A DNA stretch of 64,000 bases from an uncultured delta proteobacterium (GTDB taxonomy: Bacteria; Desulfobacterota; Desulfobacteria; Desulfobacterales; B30-G6), in the NCBI GenBank assembly GCA_963842925.1, contig CAWJIL010000017.1:178833-242832 (forward strand). Reading direction: 5' to 3'. The position numbers and the translations under genes are program-made. The notes under the pieces were generated by a model, which saw only the letters and a program-made list of their open reading frames with translations, searched no databases and was not told where the DNA came from. Positions 17,030-57,685 of the stretch are shown in pieces (within the stretch, counting starts at the first letter, position 1; each line of letters opens with the position of its first letter).

Positions 17030-17526
17030 GTCGAGTAGCCCAGGGGAATTTCACCCCCAGGCCCTCTCAGAACGGTACGTGACGATCTCCCGTCATACCG
17101 CTCCTGCCAGCCATTCTCTTGAAACCTCACAGTCTCAAGTCTACGCAGAAAGAAATTCGGTTCCTCCCAGTTTCCTGGTTGACCTTCACTTACTACGAGC
17201 TGGCTCATCCCCTTCGCTCCGGTCCCATTACAGGACCTTCAACACTAATACGGGATGATCCGCCCCCGTGCTTCGCATCGGTACTCTAACGCTCATGGGT
17301 CCTCCACTTGCGTTTCTCCCTTAACATCGAAGCGACAGGTTCCCAAGTTCCACGCAAAAGCCTAACTCAGATTCATGCCACCTTTACGCCGGAGGCCACT
17401 TAGGCAATACACAGGCTCCCCCTAAGCTCATCCTGAACCCCATATAAAAGCTCAGTTTTGACCTCGTCCATTATCTTTCGACGCTTCATCGAATGGTTCG
17501 CTTACGCTCATCTCTCTGAGTCACAC
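17030..17526 (-). mobile_element. ORF-less group II intron-like element (type B, ~497 nt)
   Basis: Minus strand starts GUGUGAC (GUGYG consensus). Canonical domain V at 17070-17103: GAGCGGUAUGACGGGAGAUCGUCACGUACCGUUC, with AGC triad, GAGA loop and AC bulge. Domain VI has a bulged A and ends ..GGGCUACUCGAC at 17030. No ORF. Confidence 0.65.
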
Positions 17527-17553
17527 CTGCCACGATCCTATGCCGTGACTTTT

Positions 17554-19743
17554 GTCGAGTAGACCGGGGTCTTCCATGGCTATAGGTTGTAGTTTGTTTT
17601 CTCTGTTTGCCGCCTGGTTTCCCGGCGGTGCCACATCATCACAGCCTTACCTTCGGTTGTTCCCCGGTCCCTCCACAGAAACGGACAAGCGGATTTCCCA
17701 TACATCCGGCTCTTCGGTCACTCGTTCAGATAGCCTCTAAACTACGAAATGGATTCAGGTCTTTGCGAATACTCACCTTGGGCCACCCGACCCTCTTGAG
17801 TGCCTGTCGGTAGCCTGGCCATGTGTAAGAATTTCGTTGGCTCTTACGATTGAGCCACTTAAACAGTATTCCCTTCACATGATAGAGATAGGTTGCACAC
17901 CTATCCGAGTTATCCGTTATGGCGTAATAGCTCAGATGCCCCACCACGCGCACCTTGGCCTGGCGAAGCATCTCACCTTTCCTCAGAACAGCCCTACTTT
18001 TGCGCGCCCATTCCGTGAACTTACGTAGGCTTTGTGCAAGTTTCTTGCGACTGGTCCGTCGCTTCACCTTGAAGTGCCCATCCCGAGTTTTCCCACAATA
18101 GTGTGTAAACCCCAGGAAAGTGAACTCCTTCGGCTTTTGCCCTCGCCTTTGTGCATCCCTACGCGCAAAACGCCCAAATTCAATGCAGTGTGTCTTCTCT
18201 TCGGCTACTTCCAGGCTAAAAGCTTCAAGCCTGTCTTTTAACCGATTCTCGAAGTGCCTTGCATCTGCTTTGTACCGGAAGCAGGCCAGGAAATCATCGG
18301 CAAAACGGAAATAATAAGCCTCTCCCCGGCACTGCCTCCTGACCCTATGGCTGAACCACAGATCCAGCACATAGTGCAGGTAAATGTTCGACAGCAGTGG
18401 TGACAGGATTGAGCCCTGGGGAGTACCCCTTTCAATGGCTCTAACCAGCCCGTCCTCCATTATTCCGCCCTTTAGCATACGACTGATCAACCTTAGTATG
18501 CGAGGGTCACCAATGCGGTGTTCCAGAAACTTCATCATCCATCTGTGAGAAACTTCATCGAAAAATGCTCTGATGTCTGACTCCACCAGATAGCTAACTC
18601 GCTTCTGCTGGATGGTTCGTCCCAGCCTGCCCAAACACAAATGCTGGCTCCGCTCGGGTCGATACCCATAGCTGCTGTCTTCGAAGATCTCCTCGTAGAC
18701 CCGTTCCAGAGTCTGCTTCACCGCCAGTTCAACTATCTTATCTTCAAAACAGCTGATTCCTAACGGCCGCCCCTTTTCACTGCCCGACTTCGGTATATAG
18801 CTCCGGCGGCTGGGCTGTGGGCGGTATCCCATACGCTTCAGCCGGTCAGTCAAGCTTTCAAGGTTCTCTTCGAGGTTTTCCCCATACTGTTCTTTGGTTA
18901 CGCCATCCACACCGACGGCTTTGTCGTCGTCCAGTGCTTCGTAGCAGTCCCGCAGGTTGTCCAAATCTGTCACATGATGATACAGCGATGTGAACACCAG
19001 ATCCGGCTCCTTGCGAGCCCTCTCTCCTATCCGTGTCAGGTCAGTGCTCATCAATTCTCACTCTTTGCATAGTGTCGATGTTTCCCCTTTCACGGGCAAT
19101 TGACCGTGGAGACCTTCGCTCAGCGGGGATTAGCCGCTTCATCGCTAAACCATTGCGGTTATACTGGTCTCCATCCCTCGCATCGGCGTCTTTTGGTCGC
19201 CTCCTTTTACGTTGGTCGACCATACTCGGTTACTATCCCAACGACCTGGGATGCTTTCACCAAGAACCTTTGGGTGCCTTTTCCGATGCTTGCCTGGTTA
19301 CTCCATCGTCGTTGTCATGCTCGATGCTGTCTGAGACCCCGGGGTGTCGGTTGGTACTCGTCCATAACGCACCTTCCGTTTCGCCTGCGCCCTTTAGGAA
19401 AAGATAGGCACGATCCCAAAATCAGTGTTTCTCGGGGCTATGGGTCAGATTCAGGGCTCACACCCTTCACCTCGCTAGACTCGCGGATTTCCTTATACAG
19501 CTGGGAAATACACTACCGGGCGGCTGACTAGACCTTACCCGGGAGGGCTTATGCTTTCGCATTCCCTCGCGACGCTGAACCAGCGCCAGGTTCGAACCCT
19601 AAACGCTCACAACCCTGGCTCTTTACCAACGCAGCTTTAGGTGGTTTGAAGCCTGCTCCTGCAAGCCGGCTCCGAGGGGCCAAACAACCCTCATCTTTTG
19701 TGCAGTTACGCACACTTTATAGTAAAGTGCGCTCGTGGCGCAC
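17554..19743 (-). mobile_element. Group II intron (type A) encoding an RT/maturase
   Basis: 5' end GUGCGCC at 19743. RT ORF in the domain IV position. Domain V-like segment at 17678-17712, 13 nt after the RT stop. 3' end ..GGUCUACUCGAC at 17554, the same terminal 9-mer as type B. Confidence 0.8.
17726..19054 (-). CDS. Group II intron reverse transcriptase/maturase (no endonuclease domain)
   Basis: RT motifs RPLGISCFEDKIV, GTPQGSILSPLLSNIYL and FRFADDFLACF (YADD variant). C-terminal X/maturase region. 442 aa. Confidence 0.9.
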   Translation of the reverse strand: MMSTDLTRIGERARKEPDLVFTSLYHHVTDLDNLRDCYEALDDDKAVGVDGVTKEQYGENLEENLESLTDRLKRMGYRPQPSRRSYIPKSGSEKGRPLGISCFEDKIVELAVKQTLERVYEEIFEDSSYGYRPERSQHLCLGRLGRTIQQKRVSYLVESDIRAFFDEVSHRWMMKFLEHRIGDPRILRLISRMLKGGIMEDGLVRAIERGTPQGSILSPLLSNIYLHYVLDLWFSHRVRRQCRGEAYYFRFADDFLACFRYKADARHFENRLKDRLEAFSLEVAEEKTHCIEFGRFARRDAQRRGQKPKEFTFLGFTHYCGKTRDGHFKVKRRTSRKKLAQSLRKFTEWARKSRAVLRKGEMLRQAKVRVVGHLSYYAITDNSDRCATYLYHVKGILFKWLNRKSQRNSYTWPGYRQALKRVGWPKVSIRKDLNPFRSLEAI

Positions 19744-26822: not shown

Positions 26823-27320
26823 ATACCGGGTAGCCGGGGGCCATTGCTGGCCCCAAGCCCCCTAAGGTAGGGTCGAGAACTGGCGCGGTGCCTTATGGGT
26901 CCGTTTCCAGTTCCCGCCTCGTCAAACGCAGCATGCGGATTTCCCGCACTACGCTTACTCTGTTAACTTAATCTGAGGAGTTATGTGGCCTATCAAACTG
27001 GCAGCGCTTTCGACCCTATTCGAGCCTACTCCACCTGTTCCAACCGAATCAGTCTTCACCTTCAGGTATATCTTCCTTCTCAGGTCTTGCAGAATGATGG
27101 ACGATTTTATCATTTCGTCCCCGCCTCCCAGTGTTGTCGGAAGATTGTTAACAGCAGGGTCGCACAGGCGAACTTCAGCGCATTGTCAGGAAGGCTTCAT
27201 ACCCGTCAAGGATGCACCTTGAGCGCATGCTTCCATAGGATTGCAGCGACGGGACACTGAGTTCAGACAAAGGCGAACTGCCTTCGCTGAACAGTCAAAA
27301 TACGCGACTTCGTGTCGCAA
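26823..27320 (-). mobile_element. ORF-less group II intron-like element (type C, ~498 nt)
   Basis: Minus strand begins UUGCGACACGAAGUCGCG (terminal hairpin as in type A). Domain V at 26924-26956: AAGCGUAGUGCGGGAAAUCCGCAUGCUGCGUUU, with AGC triad and a 2-nt bulge. Domain VI GGGGGCUUGGGGCC..GGCCCCCGGCUACCCGGUAU has a bulged A. The ORFs the track places here are not coding. Ends uncertain by ~10 nt. Confidence 0.65.
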
Positions 27321-49813: not shown

Positions 49814-50045
49814 TTGCGACACGAAGTCGCGTATTTTGACTGTTCAGCGGAGGTATTTAGCCTTTGTCTGAACCCAGTGTCCCGTCGCTGCGATCCTATG
49901 GAAGCATGCGCCCAAGGTGCATCCTTGACGGGTATGAAGCCTTCCTGACAATGCGCCGAAGTTCACTTGTGTGAACGGTGTGGAAGCCGTGAGGTGGAAG
50001 CGCTCCTGGAAGCTCCATCCGGGTGAGGGGTTAGGATAGGATACT
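49814..50045 (+). mobile_element. 3'-truncated copy of the type C ORF-less group II intron (5' ~230 nt only)
   Basis: Near-identical by eye to the first ~190 nt of 27320..26823 (minus). It then diverges, and no domain V or VI is present. Confidence 0.7.
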
Positions 50046-51848: not shown

Positions 51849-53414
51849 ATGATTGATACAATAAAACAATTCTTTTGGAATATCGTCTCTAGCAATCTAC
51901 CGACTGATTATGATCTTGAGGCCCTTCGGAAAATATTCTTACTGAACATGTTAGCGATCCTTGGTATCTTTTTTTTGGCGCTTTTAGGGACAATAACCAT
52001 AATTCAGATGGATTATTTTTTGGGTGCAGTAGATTTTACAATCCTTGGGTTTATAATTGTCCTGTTTTTGTACCTGAGAAAGACAAAAAAAAATGAATTG
52101 GTCGGGGTGCTCGGCACAATAACGGTAGGTATTTTTTATTTCTATCTCGTCGCCTACGGCGGCATCAGTAACACAGCTTACGTTTGGGCTTTCACATACC
52201 CCTTAATATCGCTTTTTTTGCTTGGAACAAAACTGGGCTCATTAACGTCATTGTTATTATTAGGCATGATTTGTATTGTTTTCATGTTTGGGACGAAAGT
52301 TGCCTTTTTTACGACCTATAGCACCGATCTTTCAATCCGATATATATCAGCCTATATCATAATACATCTGTTTTCCTACATAATGGAAAAAGTTCGTTCC
52401 ATCGTCCAAAACCGTCTCGAGACTGCAAATATTAAAATTAAAAAAACCCTTAAAAAAGTTCAGGTTAAATCTATCCAACTTGCTGAATCCAATGAGGGCT
52501 TGCAGATAGAGATTTCCGAGCGTAGGAAGGTTGAGAAAGCCTTGAAGGAGAGCGAAAAACGATTTCGCTCATTGTTCGAAGAATCCAAGGACGCAATTGT
52601 CAATACTGATAAGAAAGGTAACTTGCTTCTGGTCAATCCGGCAGGCATGGCGCTGTTTGGGCTGACAAATGCTGAATTAGCGTCTATCAATTTCCAGGAG
52701 CTGTACGTAGATCCTGAAATGGTCCGAAGATTTACAACTGCCATACGCGAAAAGGGTCATATTCGCGATTTCGGCGTTCAGTTGCGTGGAAAAGACGAAA
52801 AAATCATGGACTGTTTGATGACAGTCATCACCAAGCAATCGGACGATAGTGCTTTGATGGGGTATGAAGGAATTATTCGGGATGTAACACCATACAAAAA
52901 AATGGAGGAAGAACTCCGACGATTGGCCACTATCGATTCTCTCACCGGCATCAACAATCGGCGTAACTTTTTGGATCTGGCACAAAGGGAAATTAGCCGT
53001 TCCAGCCGATATGACCGTCCTTTTTCTATGGTTATGCTTGACATAGACTACTTTAAAAAGGTCAACGACACTTACGGTCACTCTGTCGGGGATAAAGTGC
53101 TGATTGAATTCTGCGCAGTCTGCCTGAAACAACTTCGTGAGAACGATATCATGGGCCGATTGGGAGGTGAGGAGTTTGCCATTGCCTTGGTGGAATGTGA
53201 TCCAGAAATGGCGGCGATCTTTGCCGAGCGCATCAGGCAGGCCGTGGCTTCGCACGCGGTGCCCATCGGCAGTGAGGAAATACGCTTCACAGTTAGCCTG
53301 GGAGTGACCAGTATGCGGCAGGGGTGCGATCTGGATTCAATTCTTGAACGCGCTGACAACGCTTTGTACAGGGCCAAGGAAAATGGGAGGAATCAGGTAC
53401 AATCCATTGAATAA
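51849..53414 (+). CDS. Membrane sensor diguanylate cyclase (multi-TM + PAS + GGDEF)
   Basis: About 6 N-terminal TM segments. PAS-like region (SEKRFRSLFEESKDAIVNTD..). GGDEF domain with GGEEF active site and RxxD-like upstream site. Confidence 0.9.
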   Translation: MIDTIKQFFWNIVSSNLPTDYDLEALRKIFLLNMLAILGIFFLALLGTITIIQMDYFLGAVDFTILGFIIVLFLYLRKTKKNELVGVLGTITVGIFYFYLVAYGGISNTAYVWAFTYPLISLFLLGTKLGSLTSLLLLGMICIVFMFGTKVAFFTTYSTDLSIRYISAYIIIHLFSYIMEKVRSIVQNRLETANIKIKKTLKKVQVKSIQLAESNEGLQIEISERRKVEKALKESEKRFRSLFEESKDAIVNTDKKGNLLLVNPAGMALFGLTNAELASINFQELYVDPEMVRRFTTAIREKGHIRDFGVQLRGKDEKIMDCLMTVITKQSDDSALMGYEGIIRDVTPYKKMEEELRRLATIDSLTGINNRRNFLDLAQREISRSSRYDRPFSMVMLDIDYFKKVNDTYGHSVGDKVLIEFCAVCLKQLRENDIMGRLGGEEFAIALVECDPEMAAIFAERIRQAVASHAVPIGSEEIRFTVSLGVTSMRQGCDLDSILERADNALYRAKENGRNQVQSIE

Positions 53415-53467
53415 TATTATATACGTTCCTGTTTGATAGTAATCATAAAAAAACTCTATCTCCTATT

Positions 53468-53510
53468 CCATGCTACCGTGGACATTACCATATGGTATCG
53501 GTAATATTGT
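53468..53510 (+). repeat. ~165-bp repeat, partial copy R15 (centre variant 2 + start of right arm)
   Basis: CCATGCTACCGTGGACATTACCATATGGTATCGGTAATATTG is almost identical to the same part of R12. Lies ~40 nt before the ATG at 53550. Confidence 0.7.
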
Positions 53511-53549
53511 CTTAAATTCTAATATTCTCGTAAGAGCGAGAGATTAATA

Positions 53550-53969
53550 ATGGCTATAAAAAAAACATACTATGAAGATGGTGGAATTGAATACGACATC
53601 TCAGGCGTATTCACAGATAACGTTCTATCTGAATTAAATAAGGAGCTTTACCAGGATGAGGAACAAATAAAGCAGATCTCCTACCAGATATTGAATGTTT
53701 CAAACATAGAGGGGATCGAAATCACGGATGAACAGATCTTACGAAACGCTGAAGAAGATAAGAGGGCATTTAGCATTAATCCTAAAATGCGGATCGCTAT
53801 TTTGGTCAACTCAGATTTAGCATTCGGGCTTAGCAGGGTATGGGAGGCGAATGCATACAATATGTTTGCCCAAAATGACAATTGCGGCGTCTTTCGAAAC
53901 AGAAATGAGCTTATTGATTGGATCAAATCTGAAGGGAACTCTTTCTGCATCCATTTATCAAACGCATAA
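53550..53969 (+). CDS. Hypothetical small-domain protein (paralogue of the 38175..38562 pseudogene)
   Basis: 139-aa ORF. The last ~10 codons read through the antisense RT remnant and are probably not native. Confidence 0.6.
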   Translation: MAIKKTYYEDGGIEYDISGVFTDNVLSELNKELYQDEEQIKQISYQILNVSNIEGIEITDEQILRNAEEDKRAFSINPKMRIAILVNSDLAFGLSRVWEANAYNMFAQNDNCGVFRNRNELIDWIKSEGNSFCIHLSNA

Positions 53970-54001
53970 TGAAGAAAAAGATTGGCCAGCAGCGGGCTAA
54001 T
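53933..54001 (-). pseudogene. Reverse-transcriptase remnant, distal piece
   Basis: Minus-strand translation (I)SPLLANLFLHYAFDKWMQKEFP is the RT motif 4 region. RT similarity stops at ~53933. Confidence 0.7.
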
Positions 54002-55637
54002 GACTCCTTGAACGCAAAAGATAACTTGGAATATTTGTCCCGATATTTGATTTTTCTGTTATGGTTGAGTTCGGCAAAGGGATCGAATGTTTGATTGTAA
54101 CGGTTTTATCATCAATCAAAATCTCTTTCACAATTAGACGCAGAACCTTTTGTCTCTCTTCCACTCTCAGCGTATCTGCCGCACTTTTCAGTTGATCCAA
54201 AAAAGACTCGATATCAGTTGCTAATCGAAAGACGGCTTTTTGGTCCGACAATGCACATTCTATACTTGCCAACTCCGATTGCAATGCTTTCTGCCGTTTC
54301 CTTAGCTGGGGCATTCTGTCACGAATCTCTTCAATTTTTATAAGATCTTCTTGGTACGCATCCAATAGCCGTTGAATGCTGTTTCCTAATCGCAACAACT
54401 CTTTTTCTATTGATTCTTTTCTTCGCTTAGTTGGATTGGAAGATTGTATTTCTTCAACTCGACGATTGATCTCAGCTTTCACTAAATCGGGGTTGCTCAA
54501 TAGTTCAACAACTTTTTGCCAAATAATTCCATCCAGGTGGTCTTGGCGGATTGGCCGGTTCTGACATACTCGTCCTTTGGGAAAGCGGTAGTTGTCTGAA
54601 CCCAAGCAACGGTAATAATACAGTTTTCGTTTGGATGTACGCGTCGAAGTTCGGTAATATGCATAGCCACAGCTTTTACACACAATCATTCCTTGTGACA
54701 AGGTCGGTTCAATGGTACGTCGAAGGGAATGCTTCTTGTTGTGTTGCAAGCGTTCCTGAGCAAGTTGGAAAATAGCTTTACCGATAATTGCAGGCACGGG
54801 GATCTCGATCCAGTCCTCTCTTGGGCACTCCTGATTGGCACTGCAGCGAGGTGAAAATCCTCCTCGCTGACGCAAAGGTCTGGTTATTTTATTTCTTTCT
54901 ACCGATCTTGTTTTTCCAAAACAAGCTGTTCCCTGGTATGCTGGATTACGCAACATTGCCCATATAGTTGATCTTTCCCACAATGATATTCTCTTGCGTG
55001 TGGGTATCTGGTGATCATTTAGCCACCGTGCGATAGCATTAATGCTGAGTCCGTCTTCTACATACAATCTGTAAACAGTCCTAACAATCTCAGCTTCTTC
55101 TACGATAACCTTATAGAATGCCGATGAAGTATCAGTTTTTTTAATATACTGATACCCGTAGGGCGCACCACAAAGCACATTGATCAGTCCTGATTTGGCC
55201 TTGTATCTTTTTCCACGCCTTGTCCGCTCAGCAATCTGGGCACGCTCATATTCAGCAATCATACCCTGAAATTGTAATAGTAAATGATCTTCAGGCGTTT
55301 CCGCCCGGGGTGATTTGATAAAGACTACTTCGGCTCCATTACGGGAAAATTCTTCACTCAACAAAACTTGATACGCATATTTACGACTCAACCGATCTGG
55401 TGCGTGTATAAGTATTTTTTCGATTTGTCCTTCACAAACCAGATCTCGCAGACGCTCCAAACCAGGACGTACCAATGTGGCACCACTATATCCCTCATCC
55501 CGAAAAACCCACTGATCTGGAACAGTGAACCCTTCGCTGTTTGCCCGTTCAGTTAAGACCGAAAGTTGGCTACCGATGGTATGCTCTTCTTTTTGATGCT
55601 CCGAGGAAACTCTCGCATAAATTGCTGCCATCGTCAT
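53997..55637 (-). CDS. Large serine recombinase
   Basis: N-terminal resolvase catalytic domain (AAIYARVSSEHQ.., catalytic Ser region). Recombinase and zinc-ribbon regions (CKSCGYAYY..YYYRC). C-terminal coiled coil. 546 aa. The last codons lie inside the left inverted repeat. Confidence 0.9.
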   Translation of the reverse strand: MTMAAIYARVSSEHQKEEHTIGSQLSVLTERANSEGFTVPDQWVFRDEGYSGATLVRPGLERLRDLVCEGQIEKILIHAPDRLSRKYAYQVLLSEEFSRNGAEVVFIKSPRAETPEDHLLLQFQGMIAEYERAQIAERTRRGKRYKAKSGLINVLCGAPYGYQYIKKTDTSSAFYKVIVEEAEIVRTVYRLYVEDGLSINAIARWLNDHQIPTRKRISLWERSTIWAMLRNPAYQGTACFGKTRSVERNKITRPLRQRGGFSPRCSANQECPREDWIEIPVPAIIGKAIFQLAQERLQHNKKHSLRRTIEPTLSQGMIVCKSCGYAYYRTSTRTSKRKLYYYRCLGSDNYRFPKGRVCQNRPIRQDHLDGIIWQKVVELLSNPDLVKAEINRRVEEIQSSNPTKRRKESIEKELLRLGNSIQRLLDAYQEDLIKIEEIRDRMPQLRKRQKALQSELASIECALSDQKAVFRLATDIESFLDQLKSAADTLRVEERQKVLRLIVKEILIDDKTVTIKHSIPLPNSTITEKSNIGTNIPSYLLRSRSH

Positions 55638-56218
55638 TGGCGATACCTCTGTCCGGCGTTTGTATCATTCGCCCCACCGTCCATGATTTATTTGGTACTA
55701 AAAGTCTATATGCCAAAGCAATCTTTTTGGCTGATAAACGATCAAAACAAAAATCCAACTCAATTTGTTTTTGAGATCTTTTAGCCACGCCTCCGGCCTC
55801 TGTAGAGAAATTTTTCTAAGGCCTTGGTAACGATTTCGCCTAAATTCTGTCCTGATACTTTTGCATGGTCTCGTATTGCTTGAATCAGATTCGGAGATAA
55901 CTTGACGGTAAAGGCTATCTTGGGTTCGGGAATTGGAATGCTGGTTCCTACCCTTTGGGCTTCTTGAATATACCGGTATGCCTGTCGCCTGGAAATCTCG
56001 TATAGATCTGTCATCACGACAACCGCTTCGGCAACAGTGTCGTGGTTCTTTATCAGGGAAAGGGCTGCATTGATCCGCATCGCTCGTTCTGTGTTTGAGG
56101 ATTTGACCATGTGTCGTATTTATATAACCGTATATGACATTTGTCAACATTTTTTATTGCCCCTATAATTGTTGATCTCACGGTTAAACTCGAAGTTGCC
56201 TTTTGCGTTCAAGGAGTC
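54002..56218 (-). mobile_element. 2.2-kb integrative element: large serine recombinase + small DNA-binding protein, bounded by 19-bp perfect inverted repeats
   Basis: GACTCCTTGAACGCAAAAG at 54002-54020 and its exact reverse complement at 56200-56218 (weaker match extends ~7 nt inward). Flanks share CTAA. The element interrupts an RT reading frame. Confidence 0.8.
55781..56110 (-). CDS. Small putative DNA-binding protein (HTH + RHH-like); candidate regulator or directionality factor
   Basis: 109 aa. ..YEISRRQAYRYIQEA (HTH-like) and ..FTVKLSPNLIQAIRDHAKVSGQNLGEIVTKALEKFL (CopG/RHH-like). Function is inferred. Confidence 0.55.
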   Translation of the reverse strand: MVKSSNTERAMRINAALSLIKNHDTVAEAVVVMTDLYEISRRQAYRYIQEAQRVGTSIPIPEPKIAFTVKLSPNLIQAIRDHAKVSGQNLGEIVTKALEKFLYRGRRRG

Positions 56219-56352
56219 CTAACTCCTCCCTGCGGCGTTCCTTTATCCCGTTCTACCAAGCAACCATCAGGTAACTGAACCGGTGCTGTTAACCACCGTT
56301 GAACGTAGAGTAGTACCCATTTGCAATCGATATGCTTCTTCACCGCCTGCTC
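56219..56352 (-). pseudogene. Reverse-transcriptase remnant, proximal piece
   Basis: Minus-strand translation EQAVKKHIDCKWVLLYVQRWLTAPVQLPDGCLVERDKGTPQGGV ends exactly at the element boundary. It is preceded by an in-frame TAA, so the N-terminal part of the RT is absent. Confidence 0.7.
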
Positions 56353-56374
56353 TTATGTTGTCTTTTAATACAAT

Positions 56375-57685
56375 TTAAGCCAGATTCTGCTGGATTTGAA
56401 CGTTACCGCATTTCCGAATGGGTTTTAGTAACAGAATGAAACCTAATCCCAGGAGTGCAATAAAAGTGCTGAGCCAGAAAGCAGGACTGTAGCTACCGGT
56501 GACATCGAAGATATGTCCCGCCAAAATAGGACCGACAGATCCACCAAAACACCCACTAAAAACAATAGCGCCAAAAAGAACACCATGGGCACTGATACCG
56601 AAGTATTCAGCCACAATAGGTGAAATAGCGGTAAAGAATCCGCCATGAGCGATACCGTAGCAGGCTGCGAACAGATAAATCATCCAGAGCTCATCAGCAA
56701 TCTGCAACCACAAGAGCGTGGAAATTAGCAGCACAAAGCAAAATATCATGGCCAACCGACTGTTAAACCGATCTATAAAAAGACCTGTAGCAAATCGCCC
56801 AAACATGCTAACACCACCGATGGTGGAGAGCACCCCTGCTGCTTTAGTTGCTGATACGCCTAAATCTCTGGTAAAGGGAACAATGTGCACCAGGACGATC
56901 AAAAAGCAATAAACCACTGTGAAATTAACAATAAATAATAACCAGAACTGATGGGTGCGTATGGCCTGGCCAAAAGAAAGATCTATGCCCTTAAACACCT
57001 TAGGATCGATTTTTGAACTTGTTTTTTCTTTGGGGGGTCGTCTCATCTCTTCAGGATCCCGGCGAAGAAGTCGGCTGATCAGTATCAGCAATATCATCCC
57101 GGAAATGCCGATGACCACAAAAGAGGTTCGCCAGCCAAAACCGGTGATAAGCAGACTGGCTGTTAGGGGTATAACTAGTTGCCCTGCGCCGGTTCCCACT
57201 TTGACCAGTCCGGTGACAATTCCTCTTCTTTTTACAAACCAGCGAGCCGTGGTGGATAATGCTATTACATCAATGGAACTCATACCGATCCCAACTAAAA
57301 CGCCATAAAACAGATATAATTGCCAGATGGATTGGGTTTTGGAAGTCAGAAAAAAACCTAACCCGATAAAACAGCTGGTGACAAGCATCACCTTTCTGGG
57401 GCCTATTTTGTCGTTCAACCGTCCAACAAAAATTCCTAAAAGCCCCATAAGAAAGAACCCTAGAGAGGAGGCTCCCGAAATAGCGGCACGGGACCAGCCG
57501 AATTCTTCGATCAGGGGATTAATAGATACACCATAGCTGACGAAAAGACCGACACCTACAGCCTGAGTTCCAAAACAGGCTGCAGCGATTATATATTTGT
57601 AGGAAATATTGGTAGGTTGCATTTGATTTCCATTAGAAGCTCCAACCCGTTTTTTACATTTAGAACGTTCTTTCTGACCGATCAC
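56375..57685 (-). CDS. MFS transporter (oxalate/formate antiporter-like)
   Basis: 12-TM protein. The true start may be the ATG at 57622 (MQPTNISYKYII..). Confidence 0.8.
   Translation of the reverse strand: MIGQKERSKCKKRVGASNGNQMQPTNISYKYIIAAACFGTQAVGVGLFVSYGVSINPLIEEFGWSRAAISGASSLGFFLMGLLGIFVGRLNDKIGPRKVMLVTSCFIGLGFFLTSKTQSIWQLYLFYGVLVGIGMSSIDVIALSTTARWFVKRRGIVTGLVKVGTGAGQLVIPLTASLLITGFGWRTSFVVIGISGMILLILISRLLRRDPEEMRRPPKEKTSSKIDPKVFKGIDLSFGQAIRTHQFWLLFIVNFTVVYCFLIVLVHIVPFTRDLGVSATKAAGVLSTIGGVSMFGRFATGLFIDRFNSRLAMIFCFVLLISTLLWLQIADELWMIYLFAACYGIAHGGFFTAISPIVAEYFGISAHGVLFGAIVFSGCFGGSVGPILAGHIFDVTGSYSPAFWLSTFIALLGLGFILLLKPIRKCGNVQIQQNLA

Follow-up and report, generated by a model that had tools for sequence, protein, structure and literature searches.

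The 64-kb window analysed here, which is the whole stretch of 64,000 nucleotides from an uncultured delta proteobacterium, contains an intact copy of a 2.2-kb mobile element that is apparently undescribed and is found in many bacterial phyla. The element encodes a large serine recombinase (LSR), by which it is inferred to move, and in 55 of 63 analysable family loci it sits at the same codon of the conserved motif of group II intron reverse transcriptase (RT) genes, in either orientation. The recombinase gene has no stop codon inside the element and would be complete only when the ends of the element are joined, as in an excised circle. We consider this reading of the element to have a probability of about 0.85, on the basis of sequence comparison alone.

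Anatomy of the element in the window

To test whether the inverted ends described in an earlier note are real, we searched the window for GACTCCTTGAACGCAAAAG and observed that it occurs exactly twice, at 54002-54020 (+) and 56200-56218 (-). No further site appeared even with 3 mismatches allowed, and 0.01 matches are expected by chance. The inverted repeat extends to 29 nt at 90% complementarity and bounds an element of 2217 bp (54002-56218). The observation made in the note was confirmed: the perfect 19-bp repeat, the 546-aa recombinase, the 109-aa ORF, the CTAA at 53997-54000 and 56219-56222, the in-frame stop at 56353-56355 and the splitting of an RT fragment exactly within TPQGG..SPLL are all present. 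By contrast, we could not confirm its statements that the element carries just two genes and that a 4-nt TTAG overlap marks the crossover. Base composition gave no sign of foreign origin, with 43% GC inside the element against 40-46% around it.

The recombinase gene lies at 53997-55637 (-). In a domain search, its 546-aa product matched Resolvase (PF00239, residues 4-150, E 1e-31), Recombinase (PF07508, residues 180-299, E 4e-21) and Zn_ribbon_recom (PF13408, residues 315-376, E 7e-11). A long helical region follows at about residues 380-480, where a faint CtIP_N coiled-coil match also falls. The PHROG integrase profile matched at E 1e-96 and was covered over residues 2-516. The sequences YARVSS, PDRLSRK and AEYERAQIAERTRRG, which carry the R-x-S nucleophile, DRLSR and E-x-x-R motifs of the catalytic domain, are invariant in the family alignment, and all family-invariant residues are present in the window copy. 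The protein is 95% identical to two metagenomic proteins. Residues 1-544 are encoded by the element, whereas the last codon and the stop (CAT TAG) are read across the core dinucleotide into bases of the RT flank.

Two further genes precede the recombinase. ORF-A (55781-56110, -; 109 aa) was found in 60 of 63 loci and contains an N-terminal helical region with invariant S-x-R-Q-A-Y-R-Y and a C-terminal ribbon-helix-helix (RHH) domain. Its family profile, searched against the PDB, matched CopG-type proteins (9kkd_A, E 1.7e-5; CopG 2cpg, E 0.04), and RefSeq annotates the B. elkanii homologue as a CopG RHH protein, which makes it a probable repressor or regulator of the operon. ORF-B (55570-55788, -; 72 aa) was missed in the note. 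Its GTG start overlaps the ORF-A stop (GTGGCTAA) and its 3' end overlaps the recombinase start by 68 nt. The motif L-E-Y-x-F-D-R-L-x3-K-L-x-Q-x-Y-x-L-L-V-P is present in 55 of 63 loci, and diversity at the three codon positions is 0.40/0.31/0.61, a coding-type substitution pattern. ORF-B had no Pfam, PHROG or NCBIfam match and only 3 called homologues in 5.8 billion proteins, and an AlphaFold2 model was of low confidence, with one predicted helix at residues 6-30 (pLDDT 54); it is no more than a candidate directionality factor. A 150-aa ORF at 55698-56150 (-), called by gene finders in three family loci (L005, L006 and L087), was rejected as a spurious alternative frame because its sequence is Arg/Ser/Gly-rich and poorly conserved.

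Alignment of 51 left ends revealed a conserved putative promoter of the three-gene operon at 56119-56147 (-), with a -35 TTGACA (56147-56142), a 17-nt spacer and a -10 TATAAA (56124-56119) located 8 nt before the ATG of ORF-A. A generic promoter scan missed it because the -10 ends in A. In the family consensus, the inverted repeat GTCATA..TATGAC brackets the -10 and may be an operator. Promoter function is inferred.

At the left junction, in recombinase orientation (attL), the core dinucleotide at 56219-56220 (-) is AG on the minus strand and CT on the plus strand. It is followed by the left terminal inverted repeat at 56190-56218 (-), which is perfect over 56200-56218 and corresponds to the P' arm of attP; the arm consensus gACtCC..gaACGCAAAAGaTAACTT is conserved across 51 distinct left ends. 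The right terminal inverted repeat (P arm) occupies 54002-54030 (-), is perfect over 54002-54020 and also encodes the invariant recombinase residues Y-L-L-R-S. The core at the right junction (attR, 54000-54001, -) is AT.

The minus-strand flanks read ..VERDKGTPQGGV and SPLLANLFLHYAFDKWMQKEFP. The N-terminal side of the RT remnant (..CKWVLLYVQRWLTAPVQLPDGCLVERDKGTPQGGV) lies at 56221-56349 (-) and forms the left half of the attB; the in-frame stop at 56353-56355 is just upstream, and the gene for an MFS transporter ends at 56375. The C-terminal side ((I)SPLLANLFLHYAFDKWMQKEFP) lies at 53930-53999 (-), forms the right half of the attB and overlaps the 3' end of a convergent 139-aa ORF (53550-53969, +). 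A tblastn search with restored intron RTs confined RT similarity to 56212-56349 and 53930-54007, and the best match spans residues 164-238 of a 430-aa RT; the RT target in the window is a decayed fragment of about 70 aa. This remnant is different from the intact intron RT of the window at 17774-19057, which reads TPQGSILSPLL. It is most similar (57-64% identity) to RTs of the type found at family loci L048, L084 and L025, of which L025 was tested and lies in an RF01999-class intron. However, we found no intron RNA around the window copy, either at gathering score or at E up to 1 over 53000-57500. Among the short-remnant candidates that we re-examined (L010, L031, L047, L056 and L066), none is as short on both sides as the window remnant, and L047 and L031 keep the N-terminal RT half with a frameshift, so we rejected the idea that such short remnants recur. 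We also looked for the locus of the window without the element, but exact look-ups of the MFS protein and the GGDEF protein found nothing on record, and no empty site was obtained for this genome.

The family and its targets

To determine whether the window copy belongs to a wider family, we collected relatives of its recombinase. The best 120 clusters are at least 65% identical to the window recombinase, mostly on contigs of 2.2-4 kb. At least 596 loci occur in species-representative genomes from Desulfobacterota, Acidobacteriota, Alpha- and Gammaproteobacteria, Nitrospirota, Planctomycetota, Bacteroidota and others. In addition, 52 plasmid records hold recombinase relatives, all below 60% identity, among them B. 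elkanii USDA76, in which the match is annotated RT | CopG | recombinase | RT. Copies that are 100% identical over 2240-2260 bp sit in different introns of one genome. The closest relative, L087, is 93% identical over 2294 nt and sits in a full RT inside an intron, with AT at both junctions. Full-text searches, which reached few subscription journals, and a term search of Durrant et al. 2022 (PMC10083194), in which 'reverse transcriptase' occurs 0 times, found no description of this family.

We next examined what the element interrupts. RT homology spans the reconstructed empty site in 55 of 63 loci, and the 43 distinct RT sites give the consensus GGnACgCCgCAaGGcGGnGTg-NN-ntcnCCncTGCTngCcAAc, with a 3-nt periodicity of conservation. 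Excision in silico restored RT ORFs of 400-610 aa, with RVT_1 matched 1-204/205 across the joint and the maturase domain GIIM present in 2 of the 5 restored RTs scanned. All 15 loci tested contain group II intron D1-D4 and D5/6 RNA around the split RT, in four structural classes, which identifies the target in the family as a group II intron RT rather than a G2L, retron or other RT. Many target RTs are decayed. The remaining eight of the 63 loci are not in RT genes, although the two that we inspected (L015 and L036) resemble the target at the DNA level by our reading.

The recombinase frame and the crossover dinucleotide

Across the family, the arms are flanked by a 2-nt core, and the 2 nt directly outside each arm are the only target-dependent bases. 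The flanks vary right up to this dinucleotide, which contradicts the possibility that the conserved ends of the family lie outside the 19-bp arms. Three metagenome contigs contain head-to-tail junctions of the form arm-NN-arm, although these can be read as tandem copies rather than circles; one of them, L091, is a tandem of two elements that are 80% identical. Crossovers shifted by one base, or placed inside the arms, were checked by hand against copies with identical bodies, and none fits, because both flanking bases change between identical copies.

We found that only a 2-nt spacer keeps the recombinase frame open across attP. When attP was reconstructed, this frame was open in 51 of 51 distinct left ends, against 8 of 51 and 1 of 51 for the other two forward frames, and it encodes a conserved tail of 18-32 aa with codon-position diversity of 0.48/0.37/0.62. 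In the window, the tail (DSLNAKGNFEFNREINNYRGNKKC plus stop TGA) is encoded at 56144-56218 (-), in frame with the recombinase only across an arm-NN-arm junction, and its stop codon lies within the -35 of the putative promoter. A read-through ORF is observed in junction contig L091.

The core dinucleotides are variable (AT, GT, GC, CT, TT and others). The two cores of a site are identical in 26 of 43 RT sites and differ by exactly one base in 17 of 43, including the window (AG/AT), and copies that are 100% identical to each other carry different cores. Textbook LSR recombination with a fixed attP core does not predict either result. In canonical LSRs such as Bxb1, non-complementary overhangs block rejoining in the recombinant configuration (PMC5062993), and the window copy may therefore be locked in place.

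Interpretation and related systems

The interpretation given in the earlier note was partly supported. Its proposals that this is an integrated LSR element whose inverted ends are the two halves of a palindromic attP, that the target was an RT gene, that removing the element restores the RT frame and that the RT here is a short remnant distinct from the intact intron RT are supported, but the number of genes, the crossover register and the predicted circle junction required correction; it also missed that the copy belongs to a very large family dedicated to group II intron RT genes and that the recombinase gene spans attP. In our model, the attP is a near-perfect palindrome in which two arms of 19-29 bp, ending in GGAGTC and GACTCC, surround a central dinucleotide, and the attB is the DNA that encodes G-T-P-Q-G-G-x-X-S-P-L-L-(A/S)-N in group II intron RTs, with the crossover on the first two bases of codon X. 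By our reading of the consensus sequences, both attB half-sites and both attP arms carry GGnG(T/A) next to the core. Orientation would follow the core, as in other LSRs, and copies with the palindromic core AT occur in both orientations. Integration would split the RT gene and precise excision would restore it, whereas a chromosomal copy would make a 544-aa core plus a few flank-encoded residues and the circle, or a head-to-tail junction, a 570-aa protein with the conserved tail. The anatomy, the target, the family, the restoration of the RT frame and the open tail frame are established by the sequence analysis, but catalysis of integration and excision, promoter and operator function, the roles of ORF-A, ORF-B and the tail, and how the cores come to differ are inferences. 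The window copy looks functional by sequence, but its RT has shrunk to about 200 bp between two intact convergent genes, which this model does not explain.

We considered several other explanations. The register in the note, in which recombination occurs in a TTAG overlap, the attP centre is ATTAG and the original RT read TPQGGV-SPLL, is very unlikely. TTAG is indeed present at both junctions and joining the flanks on it keeps the RT frame, but it is a coincidence of GTT+AG on the left and AT+TAGC on the right. Serine recombinases exchange on a 2-nt stagger (PMC5062993), and other family loci have no 4-nt duplication. The family-consistent empty site, GGA GGA GTT A(T/G)T AGC CCG, reads G G V (I/S) S P and gives the canonical two residues between GG and SP found in the restored RTs of the family, whereas the TTAG register gives one. 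Moreover, the circle junction that the note predicted (..GGAGTCATTAGGACTCC..) would place a stop codon (CAT TAG) in the recombinase frame; the expected junction is ..GGAGTC-AT or AG-GACTCC... Even less likely is an invertible switch like Hin or Gin. The recombinase does sit between perfect inverted repeats, a palindromic AT core would allow inversion, and in one genome the same intron carries the element in opposite orientations (L025 versus L026). However, small invertases are about 190 aa with a C-terminal HTH, whereas this protein is an LSR with recombinase and zinc-ribbon domains; identical copies lie in unrelated introns and sites; the segment is present or absent at different sites rather than flipped at one; its removal restores complete RT genes; and no gene outside the segment would be switched by its orientation.

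It is also unlikely, although less so, that the element spreads mainly as cargo in the ORF region (domain IV) of the intron, copied by retrohoming with RT supplied by intact sister introns, with recombinase-driven hopping secondary. The insertions do lie between D1-D4 and D5/6 RNA domains that remain present, and three copies of one intron in one genome all carry the element (L025-L027), but retrohoming cannot produce 100%-identical elements in different intron types, in both orientations and with different cores, and neither the eight loci outside RT genes nor the absence of intron RNA around the window copy fits this view. A host- or intron-level regulatory cassette that, like the skin or fdxN elements, excises on a cue to switch the intron RT back on, rather than a selfish transposon, is similarly improbable. 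Scarless excision would restore the RT frame and there is a weak NCBIfam match to the XisF recombinase (106 bits against a cut-off of 375), but the occurrence of the family across many phyla, in multiple identical copies per genome and in non-RT pseudo-sites is the pattern of an autonomous mobile element, and many of the target RTs are decayed.

A more speculative possibility, which we regard as tentative, is that the integration state of the element rewrites its own recombinase and thereby sets directionality. In this view, the circle makes a full-length enzyme whose conserved basic tail favours integration, whereas the integrated copy makes a tail-less enzyme that can only excise, perhaps with ORF-B, or that stays inert until a full-length copy is supplied. 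The family would also tolerate a one-base mismatch in the crossover dinucleotide, and each hop could then re-code the core, so that the element can follow Ile, Val, Leu or Ala codons in different intron RTs. This would be a bacterial, serine-recombinase counterpart of the archaeal 'suicidal' integrases.

The element would be a dedicated DNA parasite of group II introns. By knocking out the intron RT at one codon in many bacterial phyla, the family may limit intron spread and leave the many split 'RT domain' genes seen in annotations. It also offers a very compact recombinase system of 2.2 kb, with a palindromic attP of about 60 bp and a natural landing site that already exists in every genome carrying a suitable intron. 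Two of its features would challenge current rules, namely the statement of a review that recombinases which disrupt their own gene are exclusive to archaea (PMC8371274) and the view that crossover dinucleotides need an exact match in serine integrases (PMC5062993).

Site-specific parasitism of a conserved sequence carried by another mobile element is also shown by group IIC-attC introns and IS1111-attC elements in integron sites, but these use a ribozyme plus RT, or a DDE transposase, and a different target; group II introns in integrons are covered in PMC7923331. We found no report of a serine recombinase element dedicated to intron RT genes. IS607-family transposases are small serine recombinases with an N-terminal MerR-like HTH, often with TnpB; here only the catalytic domain matches (NF033518, 44 bits against a cut-off of 110), and there is no TnpB in the element. 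The clostridial transposons Tn4451/Tn4453 (TnpX) and Tn5397 (TndX) are likewise moved by an LSR alone, through a circular intermediate and a 2-nt crossover, and their ends are the halves of a joint site. Those elements are larger (about 6 kb and 21 kb), carry cargo genes and use a GA dinucleotide in loosely defined targets. Durrant et al. name the TndX-like clade, and most LSRs of the multi-targeting clade that includes TndX-like transposases carry DUF4368 (PMC10083194). The element described here has no cargo, gave no DUF4368 hit at E up to 0.1, targets one codon of one protein motif in 55 of 63 loci and has a variable dinucleotide.

Phage and prophage serine integrases (Bxb1, phiC31 and SPbeta SprA) have the same domain architecture, and the nearest solved relative is SPbeta SprA/YokA (9dxh, E 5e-11). 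They share a short palindromic attP, a target inside a coding sequence and orientation set by the central dinucleotide, but they move phages of 40-130 kb into a single host gene, need identical cores (PMC5062993) and have the whole integrase gene inside the element. Here the target is itself a mobile element present in many copies, the cores often differ by one base and the gene crosses attP. The intervening elements skin/SpoIVCA and fdxN/XisF also interrupt a gene and can restore it by precise LSR-mediated excision, but they are single-copy, host-domesticated elements tied to development, whereas this family is multi-copy, spans many phyla and has a 'host gene' that belongs to a retroelement. 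In SSV1-type 'suicidal' integrases of archaeal viruses and plasmids, the attachment site lies inside the recombinase's own gene, so that integration splits the gene (PMC8371274), as we found here. Those enzymes are tyrosine recombinases, stated to be found exclusively in archaea (PMC8371274), and the split removes a large part of the enzyme. The present family resembles them in this one respect without being a member, because its enzyme is a bacterial serine recombinase from which only the last 18-32 residues are separated.

A recombinase element and its target in group II intron reverse transcriptases

To test the observation made from the sequence alone in the earlier note, we searched the 64-kb window for the inverted ends. 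The 19-mer GACTCCTTGAACGCAAAAG occurs at 54002-54020 (+) and, as an exact reverse complement, at 56200-56218. No third site was found even when three mismatches were allowed, and 0.01 matches are expected by chance. The repeat extends to 29 nt at 90% complementarity. Between the arms lies an ORF (53997-55637, minus strand) encoding a 546-aa protein with Resolvase, Recombinase and Zn_ribbon_recom domains, which matches the PHROG integrase profile (E 1e-96) and contains every residue that is invariant in a 23-sequence family alignment. The minus-strand flanks read ..CKWVLLYVQRWLTAPVQLPDGCLVERDKGTPQGGV and SPLLANLFLHYAFDKWMQKEFP, RT similarity is limited to 56212-56349 and 53930-54007, and the upstream in-frame stop at 56353-56355 is present. 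The observation is therefore real and far beyond chance. The interpretation in the note was supported only in part: we agree that an integrated element interrupts an RT sequence, but its alignment of the junctions and its count of two genes required correction, as described below.

To determine whether this copy belongs to a wider family, we searched for relatives of the recombinase. The best 120 clusters are 65–95% identical to it and sit mostly on contigs of 2.2–4 kb, as expected for a repeated 2.2-kb element in assemblies. A scan of one genome per species returned at least 596 loci from Desulfobacterota, Acidobacteriota, Alpha- and Gammaproteobacteria, Nitrospirota, Planctomycetota, Bacteroidota and other groups, including cultured strains such as Nitrococcus mobilis Nb-231, Bradyrhizobium erythrophlei and Sinorhizobium psoraleae. 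One close homologue (P0096, 67% identity) is labelled as coming from a Candidatus Thorarchaeota MAG, which reflects either an archaeal host or a binning error. On plasmid pUSDA76 of B. elkanii USDA76, RefSeq annotates the unit, in order, as a reverse transcriptase domain protein, a CopG ribbon-helix-helix protein, a recombinase family protein and a reverse transcriptase domain protein.

We then located the arms in each locus and rebuilt the empty site from the left flank, one flanking dinucleotide and the right flank. In 55 of 63 analysable loci, RT homology spans the rebuilt site. The 43 distinct RT sites align without gaps, giving the consensus GGnACgCCgCAaGGcGGnGTg-NN-ntcnCCncTGCTngCcAAc, which encodes G-T-P-Q-G-G-x-X-S-P-L-L-(A/S)-N and shows 3-nt periodicity of conservation. 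The element always sits on the first two bases of codon X, in either orientation (30 in the RT sense, 14 reversed). Removing it in silico restored ORFs of 400–610 aa in about twenty loci. All five restored ORFs that were scanned match RVT_1 from end to end across the joint, and two also have the maturase domain. All 15 loci tested have group II intron D1-D4 RNA upstream of the split RT and D5/6 RNA downstream, and they fall in four Rfam structural classes. The family therefore targets bona fide group II introns of several classes, recognising DNA that is conserved because it encodes a conserved peptide. The remaining eight loci lack RT homology at the site; two of them that we inspected (L015 and L036) carry look-alike DNA, for example ..CCGCTTCTTGGCCAAAC... 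At the locus L066 (an Alphaproteobacteria MAG, contig CAWFVX010000003.1), in silico excision gave an open frame of 611 aa in which an unrelated serine-recombinase-like N terminus (MNKINAEHLARDAYVYVRQSTVDQ..) is fused to the RT about 100 nt before the target codon. This looks like a second, different recombinase element in the same RT gene.

The window contains one copy of the element, with its three ORFs and both arms intact. By contrast, the RT around it covers only residues of about 164–238 of a 430-aa enzyme, with 57–64% identity to the RTs of the family loci L048, L084 and L025, of which L025 was tested and lies in an RF01999-class intron. Searches for intron RNA around the window copy found none. 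The remnant fills the whole gap between two convergent genes, an MFS transporter gene ending at 56375 and a 139-aa ORF (53550-53969, plus strand). The last codons of this ORF (..SEGNSFCIHLSNA) are read from the antisense strand of the RT fragment, so its native 3' end seems to have been replaced; it has no convincing family match (P11_C, E 0.026). Among the other short-remnant candidates that we re-examined, none is this short on both sides. We take the remnant to be a decayed intron. Other group II intron RNA matches lie at 17030-19692 (−), 27118-27261 (−) and 49873-50030 (+). Only the first has an intact RT (17774-19057), which reads TPQGSILSPLL; its proximal half-site is GGCTCAATC rather than GGnGGnGTn, and it is not occupied by the element. 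The two D1D4-7 matches have no RT detectable with our queries.

Gene content and a recombinase frame that crosses attP

The earlier note had described just two genes, the recombinase and a 109-aa protein (ORF-A). We found a third, ORF-B. ORF-A has an invariant S-x-R-Q-A-Y-R-Y in its N-terminal half and a CopG-type ribbon-helix-helix in its C-terminal half. ORF-B (55570-55788, minus strand) encodes 72 aa; its GTG start overlaps the ORF-A stop, and its 3' end overlaps the recombinase start by 68 nt. Its motif L-E-Y-x-F-D-R-L-x3-K-L-x-Q-x-Y-x-L-L-V-P is present in 55 of 63 loci, and its codon-position diversity (0.40/0.31/0.61) is a coding pattern. ORF-B matched no known family in profile searches, has only 3 called homologues in 5.8 billion proteins, and gave only a low-confidence single-helix structural model. 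Public gene callers instead annotate a 150-aa ORF in an alternative frame over ORF-A and ORF-B (55698-56150, minus strand, in the window), as in the family loci L005, L006 and L087. We rejected this ORF because its sequence is poorly conserved and of low complexity. The small genes of the element are therefore systematically mis-annotated.

Upstream of ORF-A, the family shares a promoter-like block consisting of TTGACA, 17 nt and a TATA-rich hexamer (TATAAA in the window) 8 nt before the ATG, with the inverted repeat GTCATA..TATGAC around the −10. A near-consensus promoter-like site on the opposite strand (56141-56169, plus strand; TTGTCA, 17 nt, TATAAT; 11 of 12 matches) overlaps this block and points outward through the left arm, although the number of such sites in the region is no higher than in shuffled sequence.

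We also found that the recombinase gene runs out of the element. Family proteins are identical in length up to ..P-S-Y-L-L-R-S-x-S, which is encoded by the right arm, and then diverge in sequence and length (546–634 aa, with one 800-aa outlier, P0064, which presumably reads far into its flank) because translation runs into the flank. By an approximate pattern match, at least 74 of the 110 tails carry the frame-shifted signature of the RT motif in one orientation or the other. To ask what would be encoded across attP, we joined the right arm, NN and the left arm and read on in the same frame. The frame is open for at least 18 codons (median 25) in all 51 distinct left ends, whereas the other two forward frames are open over the first 54 nt in 8 and 1 of 51. 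The encoded peptide is conserved, D-S-x-N-A-K-(G/D)-N-F-x-F-(E/D)-R-x-(I/V)-x-x-(Y/W)-R, and ends either there or after ..V-L-D-L-R-R-K-R. Arg codons alternate between CGN and AGG, and beyond the extended repeat codon-position diversity is 0.48/0.37/0.62. Such an ORF is seen in nature in the metagenome contig L091 (Ga0208077_1001564), where it encodes 611 aa ending ..SYLLRSGRRDAPYAKGNFCFDRVIRGWRGSPMLDVRRKQ. In the window the circle form would be 570 aa, ending ..YLLRSRS(H/Q)DSLNAKGNFEFNREINNYRGNKKC, with its stop codon inside the −35 box of the operon promoter. The integrated form ends after one extra residue, at a TAG created by the RT codons ATT AGC.

The open frame and the conserved tail peptide are thus shown by the sequence comparisons, as are the RT target and the third gene. 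An autoregulated, nearly leaderless operon with a predicted start near 56112, any control of activity or direction by the tail and the recombination reactions themselves are inferred.

Junction register and the variable dinucleotide

In the recombinase orientation, the window reads ..CAGGGAGGAGTT AG GACTCC.. on the left and ..GGAGTC AT TAGCCCGCTG.. on the right. The earlier note had aligned the junctions on a shared TTAG, but four lines of family evidence favour a 2-nt core directly outside the arms. The other loci show no 4-nt duplication. Three metagenome contigs carry a head-to-tail junction with exactly 2 nt between the arms (GC, AC and GC); in one of these, L091 (750-787), two family members only 80% identical to each other are separated by arm-GC-arm, suggesting that one element may integrate next to, or into the junction of, another. 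The restored RTs have two residues between GG and SP, where the TTAG model gives one. Additionally, only a 2-nt spacer keeps the recombinase frame open across the junction. The window's empty site was therefore GGA GGA GTT A(T/G)T AGC CCG, and the predicted junction of the excised form would read ..CGTTCAAGGAGTC-NN-GACTCCTTGAACG.., with exactly 2 nt. The closest relative, L087, is 93% identical over 2294 nt and sits in a full RT with AT at both junctions, which makes AT the likely core of this lineage.

The flanking dinucleotide itself varies. In RT sense, the pairs are AT/AT at 15 sites, GT/GT at 4, GC/GC at 3, TT/TT at 2, CT/CT at 1 and AG/AG at 1; the remaining 17 sites differ between left and right, always by exactly one base, although most arms match 19/19. 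Copies that are 100% identical over 2257, 2260 or 2243 bp within one genome carry different dinucleotides, for example L036 AA/TG, L038 AT/AT and L039 AG/AC; L043 GT/GT against L048 GC/GC; and L059 AA/AA against L063 AA/TA. No model with a fixed element-borne core, or with a crossover shifted into the arms, fits these data. The simplest explanation, which remains unproven, is that the core of the circle is inherited from the previous site, that ligation tolerates one mismatched base, and that replication then resolves the heteroduplex into one parental core at each junction. This would differ from Bxb1, in which non-complementary overhangs cannot be rejoined in the recombinant configuration (PMC5062993). 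For the window, this means that AG/AT is typical of the family, and it may also hinder excision of this copy. In the loci L025, L026 and L027 of one Bryobacterales MAG, three copies of the same intron (99–100% identical pieces) at different genomic sites each carry the element. Its orientation relative to the intron in L025 is opposite to that in L026, and L027 has a further rearrangement or insertion of about 1.2 kb inside the element. This pattern fits repeated insertion, in-place inversion on the palindromic AT core, or hitch-hiking on intron mobility.

Comparison with known systems

Searches of the full-text literature, including a term search of the largest LSR survey (PMC10083194), found no report of serine-recombinase elements dedicated to group II intron RT genes, nor of an LSR gene that spans attP, although an earlier description cannot be excluded because most subscription journals lay outside the search. 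The split gene parallels the SSV-type 'suicidal' tyrosine integrases, which a 2021 review describes as exclusive to archaea (PMC8371274); here, only the last 18–32 residues are separated from the rest. By its domains the enzyme is a standard large serine recombinase, but it is only distantly related to solved ones, the best being SPbeta SprA (E 5e-11). It lacks the DUF4368 domain typical of the multi-targeting clade that includes the TndX-like transposases (PMC10083194), and it falls far below the cut-offs for XisF and Ccr. The chemistry is familiar, whereas the target, the minimal split-gene layout and the apparently flexible core are not.
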